Of a stretch of DNA of 44,769 nucleotides, positions 1-25,621 are shown piece after piece. This stretch comes from a virus. Lineage: Duplodnaviria > Heunggongvirae > Uroviricota > Caudoviricetes. The position numbers and the translations under genes were made by a program. Within the stretch, counting starts at the first letter, position 1; each line of letters starts with the position of its first letter. The stretch lies in IMG/VR virus record IMGVR_UViG_2909298281_000003. One strand, given 5' to 3'. The notes below the pieces were generated by a model. It did no database searches. It was not told where the DNA came from and saw only the letters and a list, made by a program, of their open reading frames with translations.

Positions 1-3349
<3,349 letters not shown>

Positions 3350-3350
<1 letters not shown>

Positions 3351-3655
3351 TATTTCACCTCTTGCTGTGTCATTGTTGAAAAATGGATACCAGCTCGTTG
3401 CTGCCAGACGATCCAACCGAGAGTCATATCCCATGCCATGTATTCGTTATCGCCGTTTTTTACTCTCCGACGATCTACTAAGTCACCGAAACGCTTTTCC
3501 ATGAATAATTCATAGGCTTCGCGTTCATCTGGCTCTACTTCCAGAGATACGAGTGCGATTTCATAAGCACGGCGCTCAATATCGTCTCGAACCTCTAGGC
3601 TGCTGATTCGTTCTTTGATTTCTTTAATCAGTTCTTTATTGGTAAATGTGGTCAT
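3350..3655 (-). CDS. yfdT: Early-left operon protein, YfdT-like (101 aa)
   Basis: ORF length and position match the CPS-53 yfdPQRST block; acidic small protein. Confidence 0.55.
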
Positions 3656-4017
3656 TATGCTCCAGCCTCCGGTGCTTTTGGCATTACTGCCCAGTGAGTG
3701 ATATTGACGTTTTCAAGGTCCCCGACCTGAAATGTCCACTGCCATTCTCCGGTTTCTTTTTGTCCCCAGGTGTACCAGAGAGAACGCCAGCCAATCAGCC
3801 AGCCTTCTCCATTAGCATCAAATAACAGAACACTTTCATTTGCTGGTGGCAGTTCAGCTGACACTGGTATTATTTTGTTTTCCAGTGCCGCACATTTAGC
3901 TTCAAGCGCGTCGAATTTACGTAACAGGTACTCAGCATTTGTTTCATTCACTTTCAGATCTCGCGGTACACATTTCCCGCGAAGAAACCCTTCCATTTCG
4001 AAAACATTCATGCGCAT
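3655..4017 (-). CDS. yfdS: Early-left operon protein, YfdS-like (120 aa)
   Basis: 120-aa ORF, start overlaps upstream gene stop (translational coupling). Confidence 0.55.
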   Translation of the reverse strand: MRMNVFEMEGFLRGKCVPRDLKVNETNAEYLLRKFDALEAKCAALENKIIPVSAELPPANESVLLFDANGEGWLIGWRSLWYTWGQKETGEWQWTFQVGDLENVNITHWAVMPKAPEAGA

Positions 4018-4544
4018 TTGCGTAACTCCGATAAATCGTTAAAACGTTCCATAAACATCCCGTAGGCATGACCCGGTGCCAGTGGAATCACGTTGAACAT
4101 CTCTGTTGCCGGGATGCCTTCCAGTACAGGCCAGAAAGAGCCATCATCAAGCCCGAGAGCGCGGCGTTCGGTTGCCAGCATGATGAGATCGGCATATTTC
4201 ACGGGTGTACTCATAACTGGGGGTAACCCGTATTTCTCACGGATTACGGCGTCTATTTTTTCTTCCATCCGTTTATAGTCAGGAAGAAGGCGTTTCAGTG
4301 GTGCGGGAATGTCCTGGCAATACGCTTCTGTTGCATCATGCATTAACGCTTCAAAAGCAAATTCCTGCGGCACCAGCTGGCTGCAAAGAACCGCATGTTG
4401 GGCGACGCTGTAGAAGTGCGAAAGATGACCGGCAAAGCGACAGATATTTGAAAGGGAAACCGCGATATCGTTAATATCGATGTCGTCTTTATTTATCCTG
4501 TCATAATAAAAATGCTTCCCGGAAAAAGTTTTAATAAATGACAT
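4008..4544 (-). CDS. yfdR: HD-domain phosphohydrolase, YfdR-like (178 aa from the internal ATG)
   Basis: Conserved H..HD motif (ALMHDATEAY); GGAGAA ribosome-binding site before ATG at 4544. Confidence 0.65.
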   Translation of the reverse strand: MSFIKTFSGKHFYYDRINKDDIDINDIAVSLSNICRFAGHLSHFYSVAQHAVLCSQLVPQEFAFEALMHDATEAYCQDIPAPLKRLLPDYKRMEEKIDAVIREKYGLPPVMSTPVKYADLIMLATERRALGLDDGSFWPVLEGIPATEMFNVIPLAPGHAYGMFMERFNDLSELRKCA

Positions 4545-4671
4545 TTTGTTCTCCACGTATATGCACTGCACCGCGCTGAATTCTGGTAAAAGGAAGCCCT
4601 CACCATCCGGTGATTATTGAGTTAATTACGTTTCCATAAATGCCCCCGCAGGGGCATTTGCAGTAATGAAA

Positions 4672-5496
4672 TCAGGCGGTGAAAGTACCAATAAAGGTTT
4701 CTACTTTGCTGTCCTTGAATTTCTCAACAAGCAGATCACGAAATTCGTTAGCCATTTCTTCCTGCACCGCTTCCAGCTGAATAATGCGCAGAACCAGTAC
4801 AGGACGATCGCCAGTGATAATGCTGAGGCGTAATTTAAACGGACGTTCTTTCAGACCTTCAAACGGAACGCATTTAAATTCAAATGCCACTGGCATAATG
4901 TCTTTGGTCTTCGCTTCGACAGACTCCATCAGGGAGCGTTTGCCGCTGAAGTCATTATCTTCAAAATCAGCGGTCTGGTTTGCTTCAATCGTGATTTTAC
5001 GGACTGCCGCAGCCGCTTTTGTTGCCTGAATGGTGTCACCATTAGCATCAAAGCCCACAAGGTAGTCGGCCCAGTCTTCGATCCATTCTGCCAGTGACTT
5101 CTGGGAGTTACGCTCGCCGTTAACAGACAACAGAGCAGAGAACGGTGCTGTCTTTTTCAGTTTGAGAGTGGCAGTGTTATCTGCGTGACCTGGCTCATCA
5201 ATAGTACCCAGGTTAAGCACACTGATGGCACGCATATTATCGGCATCGATAAAGCAGCGGGTGCCTTCATCTGCAAGATCTTTAGAATAACGGGTAAAAT
5301 CATCGATGCTGGCAGTGGAAAGTGCACCACGGAAACGGAAGCGATTTAAATTAAATTTTTCCAGATCATGAATGCGGAAATTCTCAGGCAATGCCACAGC
5401 ATCGGCACCAATCTTACTGATAATTTCATTAACACCCTGAGCAGAAATAAGGGCATGGATTTGATTAATTGCGGTTGCGTCTAAGTTCTGAGACAT
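4672..5496 (-). CDS. yfdQ: DUF2303-family protein, YfdQ-like (274 aa)
   Basis: 274-aa ORF in a codon-consistent frame; length matches YfdQ. Confidence 0.6.
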
Positions 5497-5561
5497 AATA
5501 AGTCCTCACTATATAAAGATATTCAGTGATGAGATAAATAATCAGTTTATTACGAACGATA

Positions 5562-5924
5562 TTAACGACCTGCTGCGCGGAGTTTTCCGTCAGGTTCACC
5601 GGCAAGAGTCAGTAATTGTCCCTGGTCTTCCTGCAGAATAGTCAGGCGACCACCGCGATTGACATACATCGGCGTTTCGGTGGTGTCTTCTTCGGAAATT
5701 TTCCCGCGGTTAGTCGGGCGAACATATGAGAGTTTGTGTTTGATTTTCACACGGTTCTCATCAAACGGTTCGATTTCCAGATTGAGTGAGACCTTCCCTT
5801 TGGTTTTCGTGTTCATCACACCGGAAGCGACTTCACTGAGAACTGCGCCGATTTTGGTTTCAAATACGCCGCCGTCCAGCTCCCCGATAAATGCCTGCAC
5901 ATCAGTACTGCGTTCGCTAGCCAT
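5562..5924 (-). CDS. yfdP: Early-left operon protein, YfdP-like (120 aa from internal ATG MASERS...)
   Basis: GAGGAG ribosome-binding site 7 nt upstream of ATG at 5924-5922; the upstream 55 codons of the track ORF look non-coding. Confidence 0.55.
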   Translation of the reverse strand: MASERSTDVQAFIGELDGGVFETKIGAVLSEVASGVMNTKTKGKVSLNLEIEPFDENRVKIKHKLSYVRPTNRGKISEEDTTETPMYVNRGGRLTILQEDQGQLLTLAGEPDGKLRAAGR

Positions 5925-6394
5925 TTTGCTGCTCCTCATCATATCGACCCTGCAAGGTCGGTTGGTTTCTCCACAAAACAGAGAAGAACACCTGCGGTGG
6001 CAGCCGCCCGGATGGATTGGGTTATGAGCCCGTCGTCCGGTGATGCTCTTCTCTGTTTTGCAAAAAAGGACGGTACCAGCCGGAAGCAAGGGTACAAACT
6101 GGTACCGCCAGGACTACACACAGCATAAAGTTGTGGTGCCGGGTGCCTCCCGGTGCCTGGCGAAGGTTGCACACTAGGCGGGTGGGTATCCACAGAAGGT
6201 CGACTGTCAGCCTCAACCTTAACCCGCGTGCGCTGAGCCGCATTCACCACAACGCTAAGGATTCTCTCTGGTTGAAAATACTTAGCTGTTATGTGCCTGC
6301 TTTTAGCCACATCAGGCGAGGTGGACCTGGTTATTCCCCAACAACAAGGATTCGGTTAATCTGGATATCCCCAACAACAATAAGAGTATTCAAT

Positions 6395-6910
6395 GTGATC
6401 GCTGAATTAACGGCAGCAATGACGGCTATTCGTGAAACAGCCCAGATTGCAAAACTAATGAACGAGGCAAAAACTCAAGCTGAAGTAAATGCGGCTATTG
6501 GTGAGCTGAACTCAAAGCTTGCGTCTATTCAGCGCGAATGCGTGTCTCTCGTTGAACTGGTGGGCTCTTATCAAGAAATAAATGCTTCTCTCAAAGCTAA
6601 AATTGCAGAATTCGAAAACTTTGAGGCTCAGACGGAAGGCTATATCCTTAACCAACTTGAGTCGGGTACTTTTGTATACTCGAAGGAGGTAATCGTGAAC
6701 GGTGGCAGCATAACCATGCATCTTTGCCCAAAATGTTTTGGACAAAAGATAGTATCGATACTTCAACCATTCCCAGTTAGCGAAGATGAGCTTTTTCATA
6801 AAAGCAGATGCCTCCACTGTGAAAATAAGTTTCTGATGAATAAAAATCCGGATTACGTATCGCCTCCATCCATTGAGGAGTTGTCCAGAAAACTTAACGG
6901 CAATCTGTAG
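6395..6910 (+). CDS. Hypothetical coiled-coil protein with a C-terminal CxxC...CxxC zinc ribbon; candidate immunity-region accessory (moron) gene
   Basis: Coding-like sequence starts near GTG 6395 or ATG 6419; motifs CPKCFGQK and CLHCENK; followed by an intrinsic terminator; opposite strand to the early-left operon. Confidence 0.5.
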   Translation: MIAELTAAMTAIRETAQIAKLMNEAKTQAEVNAAIGELNSKLASIQRECVSLVELVGSYQEINASLKAKIAEFENFEAQTEGYILNQLESGTFVYSKEVIVNGGSITMHLCPKCFGQKIVSILQPFPVSEDELFHKSRCLHCENKFLMNKNPDYVSPPSIEELSRKLNGNL

Positions 6911-6950
6911 ATTACTACTGTTGTGGATATCCAGATTGTTAAAGAGCTAA

Positions 6951-6972
6951 GCGTCCTGTAGGGCGCTTTTTT
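6951..6972 (+). terminator. Rho-independent terminator after the coiled-coil gene
   Basis: Stem gcgtcc/gggcgc with tgta loop, followed by TTTTTT. Confidence 0.55.
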
Positions 6973-7058
6973 GTTGCTAACGAATCATCCTGGACTTCAT
7001 ATGCCCCAGGCGGCTACTTCGTGGGCGTCCTGCCTGTTCGTTATCTTTGATATAAAAT

Positions 7059-7121
7059 CTAACTTAACTTAGTTATCATGGCAAGAGAAAACACCAAACT
7101 TTTCTTAGTTCGGTGCCTTAG
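7059..7121. promoter_or_regulatory. OL-like operator cluster, with presumed leftward promoter
   Basis: Repeated half-site palindromes CTAAC-N4-CTTAG (7059-7072), CAAAC-N4-CTTAG (7095-7108) and a further CTTAG at 7117-7121, just 3' of cI. Confidence 0.45.
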
Positions 7122-7137
7122 TTAGAGAAGAGAGGTC

Positions 7138-7764
7138 TTAGAGTTCGTATTGAACTCCTTTGACTACACCAATGATAAGGCAATTACCATTGATAGGGAT
7201 GTTGGGATACCGAGGATTTAATGGCACTAAAAACTTTTGAGGGCCATCGATGACTAATTTTTTTACTGTAGCTTCGTTTGTTCCATCAAGTCGAGCGATG
7301 ACTATTTTTCCATGACGAGGTTCTGCATCTGGATCTACAATCACTGTTGCGCCTTCTGGTATTGTTGGGAGGCCATTAGGGTTAGTCATGGAGTCACCTT
7401 TAACCTCTAATGCAAATGAGTTATCACCAACCTTTAATGATGTATCTACCCACTTGTCCACTTCACTAAACACTTCTGCTGCCCTGCACTCAGTAAACTG
7501 CCCAGCCTGAACCCACGATATTACAGGAACTCTGCGCATGTTTGTGACGAGTTTGCCTTCAAACTCAGCACCATAAAGAATGTAATCTATTGACGTATTG
7601 AAGAACTTCGCTAATTTCGAAAGTGCCTCCCCGCCAGGGGTATTGATGTCTTTCTCCCAGTACCCCACAGCAACGTCGCTTACTCCACAAAATTTACCCA
7701 ATTCTTTCTGGGACGTTCTGGTAACTCTTCTCAGAGCTTTTATACGCTGACCAACCGTTTCCAT
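7138..7764 (-). CDS. cI: CI-type prophage repressor (HTH_XRE N-domain plus S24 LexA-like peptidase C-domain)
   Basis: 208-aa ORF; Ser/Lys dyad context (GDSM ... VKKL); divergent from cro. Confidence 0.85.
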   Translation of the reverse strand: METVGQRIKALRRVTRTSQKELGKFCGVSDVAVGYWEKDINTPGGEALSKLAKFFNTSIDYILYGAEFEGKLVTNMRRVPVISWVQAGQFTECRAAEVFSEVDKWVDTSLKVGDNSFALEVKGDSMTNPNGLPTIPEGATVIVDPDAEPRHGKIVIARLDGTNEATVKKLVIDGPQKFLVPLNPRYPNIPINGNCLIIGVVKGVQYEL

Positions 7765-7786
7765 AGGAGCACCATTTCTTTAATTG

Positions 7787-7849
7787 CTAAGTAATCTTAG
7801 TTTTTATTGACCAAAGATAGATTTGTAATTAGCATCTAACAAAACTTAG
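7787..7849. promoter_or_regulatory. OR-like operator/promoter region (PRM/PR) between cI and cro
   Basis: Perfect palindrome CTAAGtaatCTTAG at 7787-7800 and CTAACaaaaCTTAG at 7836-7849; TTGACC -35-like at 7807-7812; GGAGGG ribosome-binding site before cro. Confidence 0.5.
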
Positions 7850-7861
7850 TTTGGAGGGCGT

Positions 7862-8062
7862 ATGACAACTGACGATATCGAAAGCTACTTCGGCAGTATT
7901 GAGAAAGTTGCTGCTTTTTTCGGCATAACAACTGAAGCCGTTTATCAGTGGCGAAACCGTCCGGGCCAGTTAATTCCAAAAGGACGTGCAGCAGAAGCTG
8001 CATATAGAACTTGCGGACGGTTGCCATTTAAACCTGAGCTTTATGAAAAATCTAATGGATAA
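7862..8062 (+). CDS. cro: Cro-like HTH regulator (66 aa)
   Basis: Small HTH ORF divergent from the repressor, ribosome-binding site GGAGGG. Confidence 0.75.
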   Translation: MTTDDIESYFGSIEKVAAFFGITTEAVYQWRNRPGQLIPKGRAAEAAYRTCGRLPFKPELYEKSNG

Positions 8063-8651
8063 ATCGATTAACAGAAACCACAGAACGATGAGGCTAACCG
8101 TGGGTAAGCATCACTGGAAAGTAGAAAAACAGCCTGAGTGGTACGTGAAAGCTGTCAGAAAAACTATCGCAAAGTTGCCGGGTGGTTACGCTGAAGCAGC
8201 TGACTGGCTGGATGTAACAGAGAACGCATTATTTAACCGCCTTCGTGCCGATGGCGATCAGATTTTCCCGCTGGGATGGGCAATGATTTTGCAACGTGCT
8301 GGTGGAACTCACTTCATTGCTGACGCAGTGGCGCAGTCTGCAAATGGCGTCTTTGTGTCTCTTCCTGACGTCGAGGATGTGGACAACGCCGATATTAACC
8401 AGCGCCTGCTGGAAGTCATTGAACAGATCGGCAGTTATTCAAAACAGATTCGTTCAGCAATTGAAGACGGTGTAGTGGAACCGCATGAGAAGACAGCAAT
8501 TAACGACGAGCTGTACCTCTCAATTTCGAAGCTGCAGGAGCATGCAGCACTGGTCTATAAAATTTTTTGCATTTCAGAAAGTAATGACGCCCGCGAGTGT
8601 GCAGCTCCGGGCGCCGTGGCGTGTCGTGACTGTGGAGAAACTAACGCATGA
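8043..8651 (+). CDS. CII-like regulatory protein (CP76-type, about 202 aa)
   Basis: Start ATG 8043 overlaps the cro stop; position downstream of cro; family assignment from memory. Confidence 0.45.
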
Positions 8652-8995: not shown

Positions 8996-9922
8996 ATGAG
9001 CACTAAATTAACCGGCTATGTATGGGATGGTTGCGCTGCATCAGGCATGAAATTATCCAGCGTGGCAATTATGGCCCGCCTGGCTGATTTCAGTAATGAC
9101 GAAGGTGTGTGCTGGCCATCAATTGAAACCATTGCCCGCCAGATTGGCGCGGGGATGAGTACCGTCAGAACGGCTATCGCACGGCTGGAAGCAGAAGGCT
9201 GGTTAACGCGTAGGGCGCGTCGCCAGGGTAACCGCAATGCGTCGAATGTTTATCAGCTTAACGTTGCGAAGCTTCAGGCAGCGGCATTTTCTCAACTGTC
9301 AGATTCTGACCCGTCAAAATCTGACCCGTCAAAATTTGATGCGTCGAAATCTGGCAAAAAAGCGGGTTTTCACCCGTCAGAATCTGGTGGGGATCCGTCA
9401 GTAAAATCAAAACATGATCCGTCAGATAAAAAAACTTCTCGTCCGGACGCTTCGCAACCGGACACGCAGACGGCTGAACAGGATTTTTTAACTCGCCATC
9501 CTGATGCGGTTGTATTCAGCCCTAAAAAGCGCCAGTGGGGGACGCAGGATGATTTGACCTGCGCACAGTGGCTCTGGAAAAAAATCATCGCCCTGTACGA
9601 GCATGCCGCCGAATGTGACGGCGAGGTGGTTCGTCCCAAAGAACCGAACTGGACAGCCTGGGCAAACGAAATTCGCCTGATGTGTGTGCAGGATGGTCGT
9701 ACTCATAAACAAATCTGCGAGATGTACAGCCGCGTCAGTCGCGATCCGTTCTGGTGCCGTAACGTGCTCAGCCCGTCGAAGCTGCGGGAAAAATGGGATG
9801 AGCTTTCCCTGCGCTTATCGCCGTCCGTCAGCACGTACACCGAAAAACGCGAAGACCCGTACTTCAAAGCCAGTTACGACAACGTGGACTACAGCCAGAT
9901 CCCGGCAGGATTCAGGGGGTGA
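8996..9922 (+). CDS. Replication initiator, O-like (HTH N-domain, iteron-containing linker)
   Basis: 308-aa ORF; N-terminal winged-helix region; internal iteron array encoding the DPSKSDPSKFDASKS repeats. Confidence 0.75.
   Translation: MSTKLTGYVWDGCAASGMKLSSVAIMARLADFSNDEGVCWPSIETIARQIGAGMSTVRTAIARLEAEGWLTRRARRQGNRNASNVYQLNVAKLQAAAFSQLSDSDPSKSDPSKFDASKSGKKAGFHPSESGGDPSVKSKHDPSDKKTSRPDASQPDTQTAEQDFLTRHPDAVVFSPKKRQWGTQDDLTCAQWLWKKIIALYEHAAECDGEVVRPKEPNWTAWANEIRLMCVQDGRTHKQICEMYSRVSRDPFWCRNVLSPSKLREKWDELSLRLSPSVSTYTEKREDPYFKASYDNVDYSQIPAGFRG
9305..9430. repeat. Iteron array (putative replication origin) inside the O-like gene
   Basis: Six direct copies of core CCGTCA(A/G)(A/T)AAT: ctgacccgtcaaaat x2, gcgtcgaaatctg, cacccgtcagaatctg, gatccgtcagtaaaatc, gatccgtcagataaa. 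Confidence 0.65.
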
Positions 9923-11943: not shown

Positions 11944-12939
11944 GTGACCGTGAGAGCACTACTGACCCCTGAAATTGCCCCGCGTATGGGGATCGTATTG
12001 TTCAGGCCCGGTTCAGAGCTGATGCCCCTGTTTATGCAGGGGCGTGTACTGCTGGAGCCTGAGCCGGAGCATTATTCATCTTTCGCCAGTGGTGCCGTTC
12101 CCGCGGCATCACAACCGCTGGCGGATGATCCTGCCGTTCGGGCCGTGTTCCGTAATGAGGCAGTGATTCGTCGTGCTGGTGGGGTGGAATGTCTTGAAAG
12201 CTGGTTACTTCGTGAAAAAGGCTGCCAGTGGCCTCATTCCGACTGGCACAGCGAGAACATGACCACAATGCGACACGCGCCGGGCGCAATCCGTCTGTGC
12301 TGGCACTGCGATAATCAGTTACGTGATCAGTTCACGGAGCGGCTGGAATCAATGGCAACGGATAACTGTGCCCATTGGGTGTTGTCTGTAGTCCGTCGGG
12401 ATCTCGATTTTAATGATAACCATGCCGTGACAATGCCGGAACTGTGCTGGTGGCTGGTTCGTAATGACCTGGCGGATGCCTTACCGGAAAGCGCAGCCCG
12501 TAAGGCACTGAGATTACCGAAGTCTGTTTTGCCGTCTGTCACCCGGGAAAGTGACCTTGTGCCTTCGGTTCCTGCCACCAGCATTATCCAGGATAAAGCG
12601 AAAAAGGTGCTGGCGCTGAAAGTGGATCCGGAGTCGCCGGAGTCTTTTATGTTACGCCCCAAACGTCGTCGCTGGGTTAATGAACAGTACACGCGCTGGG
12701 TTAAGACGCAGCCGTGTGCATGTTGTGGAAAGCTAGCTGATGATCCGCATCATCTGATAGGCCATGGTCAGGGTGGAATGGGTACAAAAGCGCATGACCT
12801 TTTTGTGCTGCCTTTGTGCAGAAAACACCACGACGAACTGCATGCGGATACCGTGGCATTTGAAGAGAAGTATGGCTCCCAGCTGGAGCTGATATTTCGT
12901 TTTATCGATCGCGCACTGGCGATTGGTGTGCTGGCCTGA
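11944..12939 (+). CDS. DUF968-family protein (YdfU/YbcO-like) with Cys/His-rich C-terminus
   Basis: C-terminal CACCGK ... [30 protein letters not shown] motif. Confidence 0.6.
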
Positions 12940-18650: not shown

Positions 18651-19196
18651 ATGGAAGTCAACAAAAAGCAGCTGGCTGACATTTTCGGTGCGAGTATCCG
18701 TACCATTCAGAACTGGCAGGAACAGGGAATGCCCGTTCTGCGAGGCGGTGGCAAGGGTAATGAGGTGCTTTATGACTCTGCCGCCGTTATAAGATGGTAT
18801 GCCGAAAGGGATGCTGAAATTGAGAACGAAAAGCTGCGCCGGGAAGTTGAAGAACTGCGGCAGGCCAGCGAGACAGATCTCCAGCCAGGGACTATTGAGT
18901 ACGAACGCCATCGACTTACGCGTGCGCAGGCCGACGCACAGGAGCTGAAAAATGCCAGAGACTCCGCTGAAGTGGTGGAAACCGCATTCTGTACTTTCGT
19001 GCTGTCGCGGATCGCAGGTGAAATTGCCAGTATTCTCGACGGGATCCCCCTGTCGGTGCAGCGGCGTTTTCCGGAACTGGAAAACCGACATGTTGATTTC
19101 CTGAAACGGGATATCATCAAAGCCATGAACAAAGCAGCCGCGCTGGATGAACTGATACCGGGGTTGCTGAGTGAATATATCGAACAGTCAGGTTAA
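18651..19196 (+). CDS. nu1: Terminase small subunit Nu1
   Basis: 181-aa ORF MEVNKKQLADIFGASIRTIQNWQEQGMPV… as lambda Nu1. Confidence 0.95.
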   Translation: MEVNKKQLADIFGASIRTIQNWQEQGMPVLRGGGKGNEVLYDSAAVIRWYAERDAEIENEKLRREVEELRQASETDLQPGTIEYERHRLTRAQADAQELKNARDSAEVVETAFCTFVLSRIAGEIASILDGIPLSVQRRFPELENRHVDFLKRDIIKAMNKAAALDELIPGLLSEYIEQSG

Positions 19197-19723
19197 CAGG
19201 CTGCGGCATTTTGTCCGCGCCGGGCTTCGCTCACTGTTCAGGCCGGAGCCACAGACCGCCGTTGAATGGGCGGATGCTAATTACTATCTCCCGAAAGAAT
19301 CCGCATACCAGGAAGGGCGCTGGGAAACACTGCCCTTTCAGCGGGCCATCATGAATGCGATGGGCAGCGACTACATCCGTGAGGTGAATGTGGTGAAGTC
19401 TGCCCGTGTCGGTTATTCCAAAATGCTGCTGGGTGTTTATGCCTACTTTATAGAGCATAAGCAGCGCAACACACTTATCTGGTTGCCGACGGATGGTGAT
19501 GCCGAGAACTTTATGAAAACCCACGTTGAGCCGACCATCCGCGATATTCCGTCGCTGCTGGCGCTGGCTCCGTGGTATGGCAAAAAGCACCGGGATAACA
19601 CGCTCACTATGAAGCGTTTTTCCAATGGTCGTGGCTTCTGGTGCCTGGGCGGTAAAGCGGCAAAAAACTACCGTGAAAAGTCGGTGGATGTGGCGGGTTA
19701 TGATGAACTTGCTGCCTTTGATG
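19171..19723 (+). pseudogene. A: Terminase large subunit A, N-terminal fragment, interrupted by an IS66-family insertion
   Basis: Lambda gpA N-terminus up to …GYDELAAFD, then reading continues into IS sequence. Confidence 0.9.
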
Positions 19724-19724
19724 G

Positions 19725-19800
19725 TAACCGGCTCATTTAAACCGTCTGGTCTGTTTCCTCCGTAACCGGCTCATTTAAACCGTCTGGTCTGTTTCCTCCG
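19725..19800 (+). repeat. Tandem duplication of the 38-bp IS66 left-end sequence
   Basis: taaccggctcatttaaaccgtctggtctgtttcctccg occurs twice back to back (19725-19762, 19763-19800). Confidence 0.8.
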
Positions 19801-19814
19801 GCTCTACAAAAATA

Positions 19815-20492
19815 ATGTCCATCATTTTTAATGGACACTATCGTATGAAACACCGGACCTGGATCACTGAAGCTTTACGTCTTCACTTTGAAGAACATTT
19901 ACCCCGGGTTGTGGCCGGGCGTCGCCTGGGTGTACCAAAATCAACAGTTTGTAGTATGTTCGTGCGCTTTCGGAGAGCTGGCCTTTCGTGGCCTTTGCCC
20001 GCAGGCATGTCGGAGCAGGAACTTGATGCCTGCCTTTACGGACAATTTTCCACGGTACCAGTCGTACGTCCTGAAAGCACCGTTATATCCGAAGCCCCCG
20101 TGGTAAAAAAACGTCCCCGGCGGCCCAACTTCCCTTATGAGTTTAAAATCGCCTTAGTGGAGCAGTCACTGCAGCCCGGAGCCTGTGTGGCGCAGATCGC
20201 CCGGGAAAACGGAATCAACGATAACCTGCTCTTCAACTGGCGCCATCAATACCGGAAAGGTGGCCTGCTGCCTTCCGGAAAAAATATGCCGGCACTGCTT
20301 CCCGTGACGTTAACGCCGGAGCCGGATAATAAAATCCCGGCCCCCGCACAGGAACCAGAGCAGATAAATACACCGTCCGACAGTCTGTGTTGTGAGCTGG
20401 TTCTGCCGGCCGGAACTCTCAGGCTTAAAGGTAAACTGACGCCTGCGTTATTACAGACACTTATCCGCGAAATAAAAGGGAGCAGCCACTGA
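19815..20492 (+). CDS. tnpA: IS66-family accessory protein TnpA (orf1); start uncertain
   Basis: HTH region FKIALVEQSLQPGACVAQIARENGINDNLLFNWRHQY typical of IS66 orf1. Confidence 0.7.
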   Translation: MSIIFNGHYRMKHRTWITEALRLHFEEHLPRVVAGRRLGVPKSTVCSMFVRFRRAGLSWPLPAGMSEQELDACLYGQFSTVPVVRPESTVISEAPVVKKRPRRPNFPYEFKIALVEQSLQPGACVAQIARENGINDNLLFNWRHQYRKGGLLPSGKNMPALLPVTLTPEPDNKIPAPAQEPEQINTPSDSLCCELVLPAGTLRLKGKLTPALLQTLIREIKGSSH

Positions 20493-20839
20493 TGATATCT
20501 CTCCCTGCAGGTTCGCGTATCTGGCTGGTTGCAGGTATCACCGATATGCGAAATGGCTTTAACGGCCTGGCATCAAAAGTTCAGAACGTCCTGAAGGATG
20601 ACCCGTTCTCCGGACACCTGTTCATCTTCCGCGGACGCCGGGGTGACCAGATAAAAGTGTTGTGGGCTGACAGTGACGGACTGTGCCTCTTCACCAAACG
20701 CCTGGAGCGGGGCCGCTTCGTCTGGCCAGTCACCCGTGACGGCAAGGTGCACCTTACTCCGGCTCAGTTATCCATGCTTCTTGAAGGTATCAACTGGAAG
20801 CACCCGAAACGAACGGAACGCGCTGGAATCCGCATATAA
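20492..20839 (+). CDS. tnpB: IS66-family TnpB (orf2)
   Basis: 115-aa ORF MISLPAGSRIWLVAGITDMRNGFNGLA…, start overlaps the tnpA stop. Confidence 0.8.
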   Translation: MISLPAGSRIWLVAGITDMRNGFNGLASKVQNVLKDDPFSGHLFIFRGRRGDQIKVLWADSDGLCLFTKRLERGRFVWPVTRDGKVHLTPAQLSMLLEGINWKHPKRTERAGIRI

Positions 20840-20858
20840 CCCGTTGTAAAGTGAGGAT

Positions 20859-22429
20859 ATGGACACCTCACTTGCTCATGAGAACGCCCGCCTGCGGGCA
20901 CTGTTGCAGACGCAACAGGACACCATCCGCCAGATGGCTGAATACAACCGCCTGCTCTCACAGCGGGTGGCGGCTTATGCTTCCGAAATCAACCGGCTGA
21001 AGGCGCTGGTTGCGAAACTGCAACGTATGCAGTTCGGTAAAAGCTCAGAAAAACTTCGTGCAAAAACCGAACGACAGATACAGGAAGCACAGGAGCGAAT
21101 CAGCGCACTTCAGGAAGAAATGGCGGAAACGCTGGGTGAGCAATATGACCCGGTACTGCCATCCGCCCTGCGCCAGTCTTCAGCCCGTAAACCGTTACCG
21201 GCCTCACTTCCCGTGAAACCCGGGTTATCCGGCCGGAAGAGGAATGCTGTCCTGCCTGTGGTGGTGAACTCAGTTCTCTGGGATGTGATGTGTCAGAGCA
21301 ACTGGAGCTTATCAGCAGCGCCTTTAAGGTTATCGAAACACAACGTCCGAAACTGGCCTGTTGCCGGTGCGACCATATCGTGCAGGCACCAGTACCTTCA
21401 AAACCCATTGCACGCAGTTATGCCGGAGCGGGGCTTCTTGCCCATGTTGTCAGCGGGAAATATGCAGACCATCTGCCGTTATACCGCCAGTCAGAAATAT
21501 ACCGTCGTCAGGGAGTGGAGCTGAGCCGTGCCACACTGGGGCGCTGGACAGGTGCTGTTGCTGAACTGCTGGAGCCGCTGTATGACGTCCTGCGCCAGTA
21601 TGTGCTGATGCCCGGTAAAGTCCATGCTGATGATATCCCCGTCCCGGTCCAGGAGCCGGGCAGCGGTAAAACCCGGACAGCCCGGCTGTGGGTCTACGTC
21701 CGTGATGACCGTAACGCCGGTTCACAGATGCCCCCGGCGGTCTGGTTCGCGTACAGTCCGGACCGGAAAGGTATCCATCCACAAAATCACCTGGCCGGTT
21801 ACAGCGGTGTGCTTCAGGCCGATGCTTACGGTGGTTACCGGGCGTTATACGAATCCGGCAGAATAACGGAAGCCGCGTGTATGGCTCATGCCCGGAGAAA
21901 AATCCACGATGTGCATGCAAGAGCGCCCACCTACATCACCACGGAAGCCCTGCAGCGTATCGGTGAACTGTATGCCATCGAGGCAGAGGTCCGGGGCTGT
22001 TCAGCAGAACAGCGTCTGGCGGCAAGAAAAGCCAGAGCCGCGCCACTGATGCAGTCACTGTATGACTGGATACAGCAACAGATGAAAACACTGTCGCGTC
22101 ACTCAGATACGGCAAAAGCGTTCGCATACCTGCTGAAACAGTGGGATGCACTGAACGTGTACTGCAGTAATGGCTGGGTGGAAATCGACAACAACATCGC
22201 AGAGAACGCCTTACGGGGAGTGGCCGTAGGCCGGAAAAACTGGATGTTCGCGGGTTCCGACAGCGGTGGTGAACATGCGGCGGTGTTGTACTCGCTGATC
22301 GGCACATGCCGTCTGAACAATGTGGAGCCAGAAAAGTGGCTGCGTTACGTCATTGAACATATCCAGGACTGGCCGGCAAACCGGGTACGCGATCTGTTGC
22401 CCTGGAAAGTTGATCTGAGCTCTCAGTAA
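20859..22429 (+). pseudogene. tnpC: IS66-family transposase TnpC, frameshifted by loss of one C at 21210-21212
   Basis: Two overlapping ORFs (20859-21524, 21290-22429); the continuous reading …LPASLP|[20 protein letters not shown]… needs one extra C in cttcccgtg. Confidence 0.7.
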
Positions 22430-22460
22430 ATATCAATACGGTTCTGACGAGTCGCTTACC

Positions 22461-25621
<3,161 letters not shown>

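Follow-up and report, generated by a model that had tools for sequence, protein, structure and literature searches.

The genes yfdP, yfdQ, yfdR, yfdS and yfdT are known from CPS-53 (KplE1), a prophage inserted at argW in Escherichia coli K-12, where they occupy b2359-b2363, with yfdP facing the truncated initiator gene yfdO and with the recombination directionality factor TorI following the block. The pair yfdPQ is listed as an operon in this strain (PMC9181523). At the functional level, it has been demonstrated that multicopy yfdQ and yfdR together with either yfdS or yfdT suppress over-initiation in hda-185, dnaAcos and seqA mutants and inhibit initiation in the wild type, yfdP being dispensable for this oriC-inhibition phenotype (PMC4776307). 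In the same study, purified YfdR bound domain I of DnaA in a Phe46-dependent manner and was a moderate competitor of DiaA and DnaB, oriC replication in vitro was inhibited in extracts containing an excess of YfdQRST, and the authors proposed a role in phage growth analogous to that of lambda P (PMC4776307). These replication phenotypes all derive from multicopy overexpression in a strain that carries the cryptic prophage; deletion of yfdQRST left initiation unaffected, an artefact is not excluded by the authors' own account, and YfdQ, YfdS and YfdT failed to co-purify with YfdR or DnaA (PMC4776307).

Phages with a yfdPQRST-type cluster that lack a Rec module have already been described (PMC12315714), and the early-left operons of SfV, SfIV, ST64B (sb35-37), phiNP and LLS (gp37-39) make up the "no Rec module" class of Zheng et al. 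2025. The locus analyzed here is very close to these systems. SfV (orf28-32) shares the whole block with it at 97.4% DNA identity, together with the same leader, and ST64B and LLS likewise carry the trio of yfdP, yfdQ and an HD-domain gene between cI and xis-int without a Rec module, with other accessory genes in place of yfdS and yfdT. Unlike the SfV/ST64B-type phages compared, the prophage studied here has been inactivated by two IS elements.

Identity and organization of the block

The window, that is, the whole analyzed stretch of 44,769 nucleotides (IMG/VR record IMGVR_UViG_2909298281_000003), holds a defective lambdoid prophage in which an IS21-family element interrupts int and an IS66-family element interrupts terL. 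The features of its early-left region are the following:

7138-7764: cI
7056-7084, minus strand: pL candidate TTGCCA-17-TAGATT, just downstream of cI, from a consensus scan only
6060-6283, minus strand: STnc100/PasD-like structured RNA, immediately upstream of the long helix
5966-6067, minus strand: long RNA helix of ~26 bp with a branched apex in the yfdP 5' leader, fold z about -4.8 to -4.9
5562-5924, minus strand: yfdP, 120 aa, Pfam PF27127 and PHROG 204, function not assigned; first gene of the block
4672-5496, minus strand: yfdQ, 274 aa, DUF2303 (PF10065), PHROG 210 of no assigned function
4638-4659, minus strand: GC-rich hairpin AAAUGCCCC-UGC-GGGGGCAUUU within the 127 nt that separate yfdQ from yfdR, read from the sequence
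4008-4544, minus strand: yfdR, 178 aa, phosphohydrolase of the HD-domain type with a 5'-deoxynucleotidase annotation
3655-4017, minus strand: yfdS, 120 aa, coiled-coil N-terminal part and DUF551 C-terminal domain
3350-3655, minus strand: yfdT, 101 aa, without a Pfam family
2979-3350, minus strand: xis-like gene (HTH_17, E-value 2e-8), beginning MEPYSLT, translationally coupled to yfdT

According to the listing of open reading frames, minus-strand frames of 120, 274, 178, 120 and 101 codons fill exactly positions 3350-5924, and the original prediction of five such genes proved exact when compared with these frames, the RefSeq start and the alignment of homologues. The yfdP frame as a whole extends over 5562-6089 (175 aa from a TTG) and yields 120 aa from the ATG at 5924, a start supported by the alignment of 40 homologues, while the yfdR frame covers 4008-4571 (187 aa from a GTG) and yields 178 aa from the ATG at 4544, which is the RefSeq start. 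The products differ from their K-12 counterparts by two (YfdP), four (YfdQ), three (YfdR), one (YfdS) and three (YfdT) amino acids, with no internal stop, equal lengths, 97-99% protein identity and dN/dS values mostly of 0.05-0.2. The equal lengths, the one to four changes per protein, the low dN/dS and the hundreds of homologues indicate that these are real genes and not chance frames. Judged by its protein sequences, the block is the orthologue of yfdP-yfdQ-yfdR-yfdS-yfdT of CPS-53, with the same five genes in the same order; the label "yfdPQRST-like" used for it in the original prediction thus had the identity right and understated it, the genes being alleles of those of K-12. The observation is therefore correct but not new, as it re-identifies named genes and an already described class of phages. 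CPS-53 has lost the immunity region and the structured leader, whereas cI, the pL region and the leader are all still present in the window, and homology between the two begins ~25 nt upstream of the yfdP ATG. A near-identical prophage of strain RM10042 lies at the argU/DLP12 site.

The block is located between the cI/pL region and xis-int, and its distal genes are tightly packed. yfdS begins 10 nt before yfdR ends, and TAATG overlaps join the yfdS stop to the yfdT start and the yfdT stop to the start of the xis-like gene, whose SfV counterpart is annotated as xis and after which the IS-disrupted integrase comes next. The operon accordingly reads as a structured leader RNA, the obligate gene pair yfdP-yfdQ, a hairpin, the translationally coupled genes yfdR-yfdS-yfdT-xis, and int. 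The hairpin between yfdQ and yfdR, which lacks a U-run and was for this reason missed by the terminator scan, is a candidate partial terminator that may split a yfdPQ unit from yfdRST-xis. Together, yfdPQRST constitute the entire accessory part of the leftward early operon in an SfV/ST64B-type lambdoid prophage without a recombination module.

A conserved leader RNA upstream of yfdP

The 3' arm of the long leader helix ends with the invariant motif UGUG(G/A)AG (5975-5969) and is followed downstream by a small hairpin (5960-5945) and by the Shine-Dalgarno sequence GAGGAG (5937-5932). Pairs were tallied with the invariant motif as anchor across 43 different sequences drawn from numerous genera of Enterobacterales. 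Most stem positions were paired in 85-93% of these sequences, with 3-6 types of canonical pair at each position and with many G-U pairs that are valid on the minus strand only. Owing to the high variability and the many gaps of the apical region, RNAalifold derived no consensus from the MAFFT-aligned leaders, and the ~26-bp helix is covered by no Rfam family. By nhmmer, the leader was found in 36 of 87 loci, invariably just upstream of yfdP.

The element preceding the helix has an intrinsic terminator at its end (stem 6109-6068, U-run 6067-6062) and matches the full length of the STnc100 model (Rfam RF02076) with 41.1 bits and an E-value of 4.6e-7, without reaching the gathering score of 47; the same element precedes yfdP in SfV and ST64B (39.5 and 35.1 bits, respectively). 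STnc100 and PasD are prophage-encoded sRNAs, and the element in the yfdP leader, with its full-length but sub-threshold match, is related to them but no certified member of the family. A gene resembling N was not seen in the window. The lambda N leader carries an RNase III hairpin. In parallel with it, the first early-left gene of the window is preceded by a long perfect helix in its 5' leader, and by this analogy the helix would probably tune yfdP-yfdQ expression, for instance as an RNase III site.

Distribution of the cluster and its possible domestication

The block is matched in 3596 of 5426 complete E. coli genomes, which makes it one of the commonest prophage gene sets of this species, and it is also present in serotype-converting Shigella phages and in Stx2c phages. 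SfV, SfIV, PhiR49_1 and Stx2c phages match the block directly, and the same genes in the same order are found in active carriers comprising these phages as well as Kati and ST64B, and also in Xanthomonas and Vibrio phages. A search of viral contigs for related loci returned nothing but E. coli prophages at 99-100% identity, and the comparison set consisted of 86 diverse loci taken from a scan of genome contigs. A yfdP homologue stands directly upstream of yfdQ in 85 of these 86 loci, including those of Xanthomonas, Vibrio and Pseudomonas phages, and yfdR follows the pair in 61. The 25 loci without yfdR include all the Vibrio and Xanthomonas phages and the Stx phage TL-2011c, and homologues of yfdS (6/86) and yfdT (4/86) are rare add-ons. 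The most conserved part of the module is therefore yfdP-yfdQ and not yfdR. Further downstream, the early-left accessory genes are hypervariable (310 clusters, mostly singletons), and a Pfam census of 115 cluster representatives detected no recurrent family beyond integrase, YqaJ (2) and SSB (1).

That roughly two in three complete E. coli genomes have the block would fit genes that have been domesticated in the lysogen for stress tolerance and are kept for the benefit of the bacterium, not of the phage. In this prophage, dead through the insertions in int and terL, the five frames are nonetheless intact and under purifying selection. Experimental data from K-12 point in the same direction, as survival to H2O2 is lowered by deleting yfdS, yfdK, yfdO or the whole of CPS-53 (PMC3105296), and the host regulator SrsR, which binds in the spacer between yfdO and yfdP, increases the amount of yfdPQ mRNA in stationary phase (PMC9181523). 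However, the stress phenotypes are modest, come from single-gene knockouts and have no mechanism attached to them, and the "SrsR boxes" are iterons of a phage origin, which makes the K-12 arrangement a deletion artefact. Since active phages carry the same genes in the same order, primary selection acts on the phage, and domestication as the explanation for the block is highly doubtful.

The missing recombination module

The position of the block, from cI/pL to xis-int, is that of the recombination genes of lambda, and the claim that it stands there in place of exo/bet/gam was confirmed at several levels. Searches against Pfam and PHROGs detected no Rec-module or RecBCD-inhibitor family in the five proteins; exo/bet/gam, Erf, RecT and Abc2 were absent both from them and from the early-right operon; and neither profiles nor RefSeq annotation placed any Exo/YqaJ, Bet/RecT/Erf/Sak4, SSB or Gam/Abc2 family member between int and Q. 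The early-right (nin-type) region holds only a RusA resolvase and a DUF968/HNH protein of that kind, and no Rec-module gene is annotated in a RefSeq comparison prophage with 95-99.8% identity to most of the window. The window contains 6 Chi sites (GCTGGTGG), 5 of them on the plus strand, against 2.1 expected, a number reached in 1 of 100 shuffles. Their spacing of one per 7.5 kb compares with one per 4.6 kb in the E. coli chromosome and one per 1.9 kb in LLS (23 sites), and this enrichment is too modest for a firm assignment of the window to the "high Chi" class.

Both the lack of a Rec module in the window phage and its modest excess of Chi are compatible with yfdP-yfdQ encoding an accessory of DNA transactions, namely an oligomeric complex binding DNA or DNA ends that would assist or protect phage replication and recombination intermediates, together with host RecBCD/RecA or a phage Rec module, YfdR and the effect on DnaA being secondary. 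In agreement with this, yfdP-yfdQ lie inside or beside recombination or ssDNA genes wherever the phage has such genes. The order is yfdP-yfdQ-ORF36-Erf-exonuclease-endonuclease-SSB in CP2, gam-recT-exo-ssb-yfdP-yfdQ in TL-2011c, and a DEDD exonuclease followed further on by yfdP-yfdQ-x-SSB in VvAW1, and an Rv2179c-like 3'-5' exonuclease is encoded downstream in ST64B, pAN and 25 species loci. Structural data are available for one YfdQ homologue, PDB 9o7m, whose 36 chains in the entry would be compatible with a large ring or filament. On the whole, such a DNA-binding accessory is a somewhat unlikely account of the block. The literature search found no paper on 9o7m, and the possibility that this entry is the virion structure of its source phage was rejected, because neither the major capsid protein of that phage nor the product of the gene downstream of yfdQ has been deposited in the PDB.

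YfdQ matches DUF2303 over residues 7-272 of 274 with 308.1 bits against a gathering score of 26.6, which bears out the DUF2303 protein announced in the original prediction. The AF2 model of YfdP consists of a long helix, a 3-stranded sheet and a C-terminal tail (residues ~78-105) that is conserved but disordered. Neither YfdP nor YfdQ has any detectable fold relative, and YfdP, YfdS and YfdT matched nothing among PDB sequences. A bolder and, in our judgment, unlikely proposal is that yfdP-yfdQ represent an unrecognised two-component phage machine that targets the replication or repair of DNA, be it of the host or of the phage, and in which YfdQ would form a large homo-oligomer. In Enterobacterales this machine would have recruited a DnaA-targeting HD hydrolase, and it would be controlled by a dedicated structured leader. 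The block would then be a functional stand-in for the Rec module in "no Rec" lambdoids and not a collection of unrelated accessory genes.

YfdR and a proposed takeover of host replication

The HD-domain hydrolase foreseen in the block is the 178-aa YfdR. It matches the PHROG 318 "dNMP phosphatase" with an E-value of 2e-109 and PDB 2gz4 (the HD protein Atu1052) with 4.5e-14, and its Pfam matches are weak (HD_3, and YfbR-like PF12917 with 24.1 bits against a cut-off of 25.9). The H...HD...D metal site, formed by H50, H68-D69 and D119, is invariant in 55 homologues down to 38% identity, as is E72. Both this metal site and the HD fold are common to YfbR, the HD-domain 5'-deoxynucleotidase of E. 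coli; unlike YfbR, YfdR is phage-borne, and its label of 5'-deoxynucleotidase comes from RefSeq and PHROGs. The NCBIfam equivalog PRK03826 gave 19.9 bits, its cut-off of 122 not being reached, and YfdR is accordingly a remote relative of YfbR, not its equivalog. The conservation of the catalytic residues would imply a genuine nucleotide substrate as well.

This raises the question of whether the block acts on nucleotide pools or against host defences, with YfdR hydrolyzing a nucleotide relevant to immunity or metabolism (dNMPs, modified or signalling nucleotides) and with YfdP and YfdQ sequestering or inhibiting a defence component. The strict conservation of the HD residues argues for an enzymatic activity under selection, and YfdR reportedly has an affinity for ordinary nucleotides far below that of YfbR, suggesting another true substrate. 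By second-hand evidence on a dNMP phosphatase activity, CMP catabolism was also unchanged in a yfdR deletion. An early-left site with hypervariable downstream accessory genes is typical of counter-defence regions, and large homo-oligomers are common among sponge-type inhibitors. Against these points, no family, fold or literature tie links the proteins to any defence or anti-defence system, and their very wide conservation, which extends to long-resident cryptic prophages, and their low dN/dS are unusual for fast-evolving counter-defence genes. The five proteins gave no match at E <= 0.01 in PADLOC-DB, a database of defence systems and not of anti-defence proteins. The anti-defence role once suggested for the block found nothing in its favour among the defence systems, folds and families searched, and this explanation is quite unlikely.

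The suggestion of host takeover fared better, as it fits the published binding of YfdR to DnaA and the oriC-inhibition phenotype of yfdQRST (PMC4776307). These same data qualify the description of the functions as poorly defined, which holds for YfdP, YfdQ, YfdS and YfdT but not entirely for YfdR. The profile and structure searches that had been proposed for each frame left these four proteins without a fold match and in PHROGs of no assigned function, and identified YfdR as HD-type; four of the five yfdPQRST proteins thus remain without an assigned function. For the live phage, the reading favored here is that the operon is a module for taking over host replication after induction, based on the YfdR-DnaA interaction, to which a tentative probability of about 0.4 is assigned. 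YfdR, as a metal-dependent phosphohydrolase of HD fold, would dock at Phe46 of DnaA domain I, and since this is the site used by DiaA and by the DnaB helicase, its occupation would block new initiation at oriC. YfdQ and either YfdS or YfdT would be required in vivo, and YfdP would not. Host DnaB/DnaC and replisome parts would thereby be freed for the phage initiator, a DnaD-like protein of the HTH_36 family, which would act at iterons inside its own gene without a phage helicase or loader.

The replication genes of the window are consistent with this scheme. The early-right operon encodes the HTH_36 initiator (8996-9922), with ~5 iteron repeats at 9299-9417 inside the gene, and no helicase or loader gene was found in it. 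Candidate SrsR boxes upstream of yfdP were rejected for the window, where they are located at 9299-9417 within the initiator gene. Initiators of the HTH_36 family are found alongside the cluster in 62 of the 86 loci. Of the 50 loci that contain yfdR and extend far enough upstream, 47 have such an initiator, a link between yfdR and initiator type that is confounded by shared ancestry.

YfdR would not be the first protein directed at DnaA domain I, which is also bound by DiaA, Dps and the Bacillus subtilis protein SirA; YfdR uses Phe46 of DnaA, which is the site of DiaA and DnaB, and SirA uses the equivalent Phe49. Lambda P is also a phage protein that inhibits host DnaA, but it binds domain III and is itself a helicase loader. 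YfdR has no sequence or fold relationship to any of these proteins, being an HD phosphohydrolase, and unlike these inhibitors it needs YfdQ and YfdS or YfdT in vivo. If DnaA targeting is a real phage function, it would amount to a widespread shutdown of host initiation by temperate phages lacking a helicase loader, and it would help to explain how replication is organized in phages without a Rec module. Nevertheless, since yfdP-yfdQ are the most conserved genes, the phenotype does not require yfdP and 25 of the 86 loci lack yfdR, the effect on DnaA may be a side activity instead of the core function of the module. The literature searched yielded no experiment on an active phage. The tight pairing of yfdP with yfdQ and the conserved leader RNA provide testable handles.

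YfdS and YfdT, either of which suffices in the published assay, showed no significant similarity when compared with each other. Residues 50-117 of YfdS pass the gathering score of DUF551 (PF04448) only marginally (22.1 bits against 22.0), and the protein is a mosaic in PHROGs, its residues 1-49 and 46-118 hitting separate families. YfdT matches PHROG 660 and shares its N-terminal 50 residues with other PHROGs.

Identity of the Block

The early-left operon was predicted to consist of yfdPQRST-like genes rather than exo/bet/gam. This is borne out by the position of the block between cI and xis-int, without genes of the lambdoid recombination (Rec) module. It comprises the following ORFs (ORF list):

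3350-3655, minus strand: yfdT, 101 aa
3655-4017, minus strand: yfdS, 120 aa
4008-4544, minus strand: yfdR, 178 aa from ATG (187 aa from a GTG further upstream)
4672-5496, minus strand: yfdQ, 274 aa
5562-5924, minus strand: yfdP, 120 aa from ATG (longest ORF reaches 6089, with a TTG start)

The yfdP start at 5924 is set by an alignment of 40 homologues and the 178-aa start of YfdR is that chosen by RefSeq, so the predicted coordinates and codon counts are exact. The expected DUF2303 protein is YfdQ (Pfam, 274 aa, 308 bits). The expected HD-domain hydrolase is YfdR, an assignment that stands through its residues H50, H68-D69, E72 and D119, which do not vary among 55 homologues as distant as 38% identity, and its alignment to the HD protein Atu1052 (2gz4; E-value 4.5e-14); its Pfam matches, YfbR-like and HD_3, are weak and each lies under the curated cut-off. 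By this evidence, its enzymatic activity is under selection. YfdR falls in the PHROG 'deoxyribonucleoside 5' monophosphate phosphatase' (E-value 2e-109). One rival to the takeover of host replication discussed below is that the HD enzyme acts in anti-defence or on the nucleotide pool. YfdR was ruled out as a YfbR equivalog (NCBIfam, 19.9 bits vs a cut-off of 122). YfdP, YfdQ, YfdS and YfdT belong to PHROGs of unknown function, and the DUF551 match in YfdS is marginal (Pfam, 22.1 bits vs a cut-off of 22).

In RefSeq the genes carry the names yfdP, yfdQ, yfdR and yfdT, with yfdS entered as 'phage protein'. Many E. coli chromosomes share 99.7% identity with the 2.9-kb stretch containing the block, which is matched in 3596 of 5426 complete E. 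coli genomes (over at least 80% of its length in 1931). Among phages, PhiR49_1, PhiR29, Kati, SfV, SfIV, 2H10 and a number of Stx2c phages share 97-99.7% identity with it. Compared with the cryptic prophage CPS-53 of K-12 MG1655, the protein lengths are identical and the amino-acid differences number 2 in YfdP, 4 in YfdQ, 3 in YfdR, 1 in YfdS and 3 in YfdT. dN/dS is 0.05-0.2 in most comparisons; the 0.78 of yfdT vs K-12 derives from 4 nucleotide differences only. Judged by sequence, the block genes are alleles of yfdPQRST, and 'like' is therefore too weak a label.

Prophage Setting

The window, a lambdoid prophage, is for the most part matched (95-99.8%) by the prophage at the argU/DLP12 site in strain RM10042. 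Leftward, the order is cI, candidate pL, a convergent plus-strand ORF, leader, yfdP, yfdQ, hairpin, yfdR, yfdS, yfdT, xis and int:

7138-7764: cI, Peptidase_S24 and HTH (Pfam)
7084-7056: candidate pL promoter, a consensus match only
4659-4638: GC-rich hairpin between yfdQ and yfdR

Through the 10-nt overlap of yfdR with yfdS and the TAATG overlaps of yfdS/yfdT and yfdT/xis, R-S-T-xis are translationally coupled. The convergent 171-aa ORF (6395-6910, plus strand; PHROG 1244, function unknown) has its own terminator at 6949-6968 and separates cI/pL from the yfdP leader, so that transcription from pL has to traverse it antisense. At this place SfV instead carries a different, 98-aa minus-strand ORF with terminators on both sides. 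The product of the 171-aa ORF is coiled-coil in its N-terminal half and bears the cysteine pairs CPKC...CLHC. No N-like antiterminator gene was seen.

The early-right operon carries cro, a CII-like gene, DUF4222, an HTH_36 initiator, PerC, a LexA-type DNA-binding protein, RusA, KilA-N and DUF968. Family searches of the early operons found no exo, bet, gam, erf, recT, abc2 or ssb in this prophage, nor any helicase or helicase loader gene in these operons. The number of Chi sites (GCTGGTGG) is modest, with 6 in the window vs 2.1 expected, three of them clustered within 12175-12582:

3842, 8298, 11038, 12175 and 12446, plus strand: five Chi sites in the same orientation
12575, minus strand: Chi site

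One of them sits inside yfdS, on the opposite strand.

It has been reported that the HD-yfdQ-yfdP trio is common in lambdoid early-left operons and also occurs in a 'no Rec module' class including LLS, ST64B and phiNP (Zheng, Casjens, Davidson, Amundsen and Smith, PMC12315714). These authors judged a hidden recombinase unlikely because in ArgO145 the trio occurs together with a Rec module (PMC12315714). In the TL-2011c and CP2 loci compared here, yfd genes likewise coexist with Rec genes. Both the observation and the interpretation of the original prediction are right, with the genes named and the phage class without a Rec module on record (PMC12315714). These genes are near-ubiquitous and partly studied.

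The prophage is defective, since both int and the large terminase gene are split by insertion sequences:

762-2715: IS21-family element inserted in int (C-terminal part 1-789, N-terminal part 2656-3123)
1607-2629, minus strand: istA of this element
828-1610, minus strand: istB of this element
762-789 and 2688-2715: its 28-nt inverted repeats
about 19724-22459: IS66-family element inserted in the large terminase gene (halves 19171-19740 and 22563-23840)
19815-20492: IS66-family orfA
20492-20839: IS66-family tnpB
20859-21524 and 21290-22429: IS66-family transposase, two ORFs
19724-19799: 38-nt tandem duplicate in the IS66-family element

Conservation of the Block

Conservation was assessed in 86 loci, 80 from different GTDB species and six from diverse phages (ST64B, TL-2011c, Vibrio VvAW1, Pseudomonas pAN, Xanthomonas CP2 and MET23-P3). 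A YfdP homologue lies directly 5' of YfdQ on the same strand, with a gap of 0-70 nt, in 85 of the 86; the remaining locus is truncated where its contig stops. The Xanthomonas homologue shares 39% identity with YfdP of the window (E-value 9e-18, profile probability 99%). YfdR comes next after YfdQ in 61/86 loci, usually 20-140 nt away. Within this set it is lacking in the loci of Marinobacter, Photobacterium and Hahella, in the phages of Vibrio and Xanthomonas and in TL-2011c, an Stx phage. YfdS-like and YfdT-like proteins occur in 6 and 4 loci, respectively. These counts describe an invariant P-Q core, a frequent third gene R and a lineage-specific mosaic of S and T, the last also visible as split PHROG matches. 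The accessory genes downstream are hypervariable (310 clusters, mostly singletons), and Rec-module families are scarce among them (YqaJ in 2 clusters, SSB in 1). The DUF2303 family is itself large, with 1816 clusters at 50% identity (E <= 1e-3); the best 150 listed are all single-domain and nearly all about 265-285 aa. That yfdP and yfdQ form an obligate pair even in distant phages is a handle for future work. Another rival reading makes P-Q an accessory of DNA transactions, in agreement with its adjoining Erf, RecT, exonuclease and SSB genes.

At the structural level, PDB 9o7m 'YfdQ Protein' has 36 chains about 40% identical to YfdQ of the window and corresponds in sequence to Xanthomonas phage MET23-P3 / CP2 ORF37; a literature search found no publication on it. 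That this entry also holds the capsid protein of the source phage or the product of the gene downstream of yfdQ was excluded, as neither is deposited in the PDB. In CP2-type phages (CP2 2639-8241; MET23-P3), yfdP-yfdQ open an operon in which a 511-aa protein of unknown function is followed by genes for an Erf-type annealing protein, an exonuclease, an endonuclease and SSB.

A Structured Leader Upstream of yfdP

The 400 nt 5' of yfdP fold far better than shuffled sequences (z = -4.8) and contain:

6283-6060, minus strand: STnc100/PasD-like RNA, full-length (Rfam, 41.1 bits, below the gathering score of 47; E-value 4.6e-7)
6109-6068 (stem) and 6067-6062 (U-run), minus strand: intrinsic terminator closing this RNA
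6067-5966, minus strand: covarying helix of about 26 bp right after the terminator, its 3' arm ending in an invariant UGUG(G/A)AG

The STnc100-like element also precedes yfdP in SfV and ST64B, and STnc100 and PasD have been described as one prophage sRNA lineage (2026 preprint). Past the helix come a small hairpin and a Shine-Dalgarno sequence. At most stem positions, 85-93% of 43 distinct sequences from Enterobacterales, spanning Escherichia to Proteus, Morganella, Xenorhabdus, Yersinia and Serratia, are paired, as counted from per-sequence MFE folds anchored on the UGUG(G/A)AG motif. Per position, 3-6 kinds of canonical pair occur, with many G-U pairs valid on the yfdP sense strand only. No Rfam family covers this helix. 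The leader was found by nhmmer in 36 of 87 loci, each time just 5' of yfdP, and is deleted in K-12 CPS-53. We infer that it acts in post-transcriptional control, possibly as an RNase III site comparable to that of the lambda N leader. This conserved structured leader is a second handle for future work.

Possible Role in Host Replication

Functional evidence was obtained when yfdQRST was found as a multicopy suppressor of hda-185 over-initiation, the minimal set being yfdQ and yfdR plus yfdS or yfdT, with yfdP dispensable (Noguchi and Katayama, PMC4776307). In wild-type, dnaAcos and seqA cells, initiation is inhibited when yfdQRST is oversupplied; binding of purified YfdR to DnaA depends on Phe46, and extracts with YfdQRST inhibit oriC replication in vitro (PMC4776307). 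The authors proposed a lambda P-like role in an ancestral phage, conceding that deletion has no phenotype and that overexpression may mislead (PMC4776307). The best-supported reading is that the block serves to take over host replication: YfdR would occupy the DiaA/DnaB docking site of DnaA, which would thus be blocked, with YfdQ and YfdS or YfdT as its co-factors. This reading is tentative (probability about 0.4) because all functional data come from overexpression, and P and Q are the most conserved yet least explained members. A further rival holds that these are domesticated stress-tolerance genes; deletion of yfdS reduces survival to H2O2 (PMC3105296).

Circumstantial support for the takeover of host replication comes from the initiator and its iterons:

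8996-9922: initiator gene, HTH_36 family
9299-9417: iteron cluster inside it, about 5 repeats of TCAGATTTTGA and variants, at 15-nt spacing

The iterons are probably the phage origin, and given an initiator without phage helicase or loader, DnaB must come from the host. The HTH_36 family accompanies the block in 62/86 loci. Where yfdR is present and the sequence extends far enough upstream, it does so in 47 of 50 loci, an association confounded by common descent. In K-12, SrsR binds the yfdO/yfdP spacer, and the iteron 11-mer is the 'SrsR box' footprinted there (PMC9181523); the strongest SrsR site of K-12 thus looks like a relic phage origin. The same iterons encode SDPSK peptide repeats of the initiator.

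Elsewhere in the window, the immunity region (7042-8075; cI, cro and operators) is the sole early segment unmatched in the otherwise 99%-identical RM10042 prophage, a typical immunity-module swap, and CTAAG...CTTAG-type repeats flank cI. Near the right end lies a full-length match to IS009 (Rfam RF02111; 44531-44729, plus strand; 229.5 bits vs a gathering score of 117).
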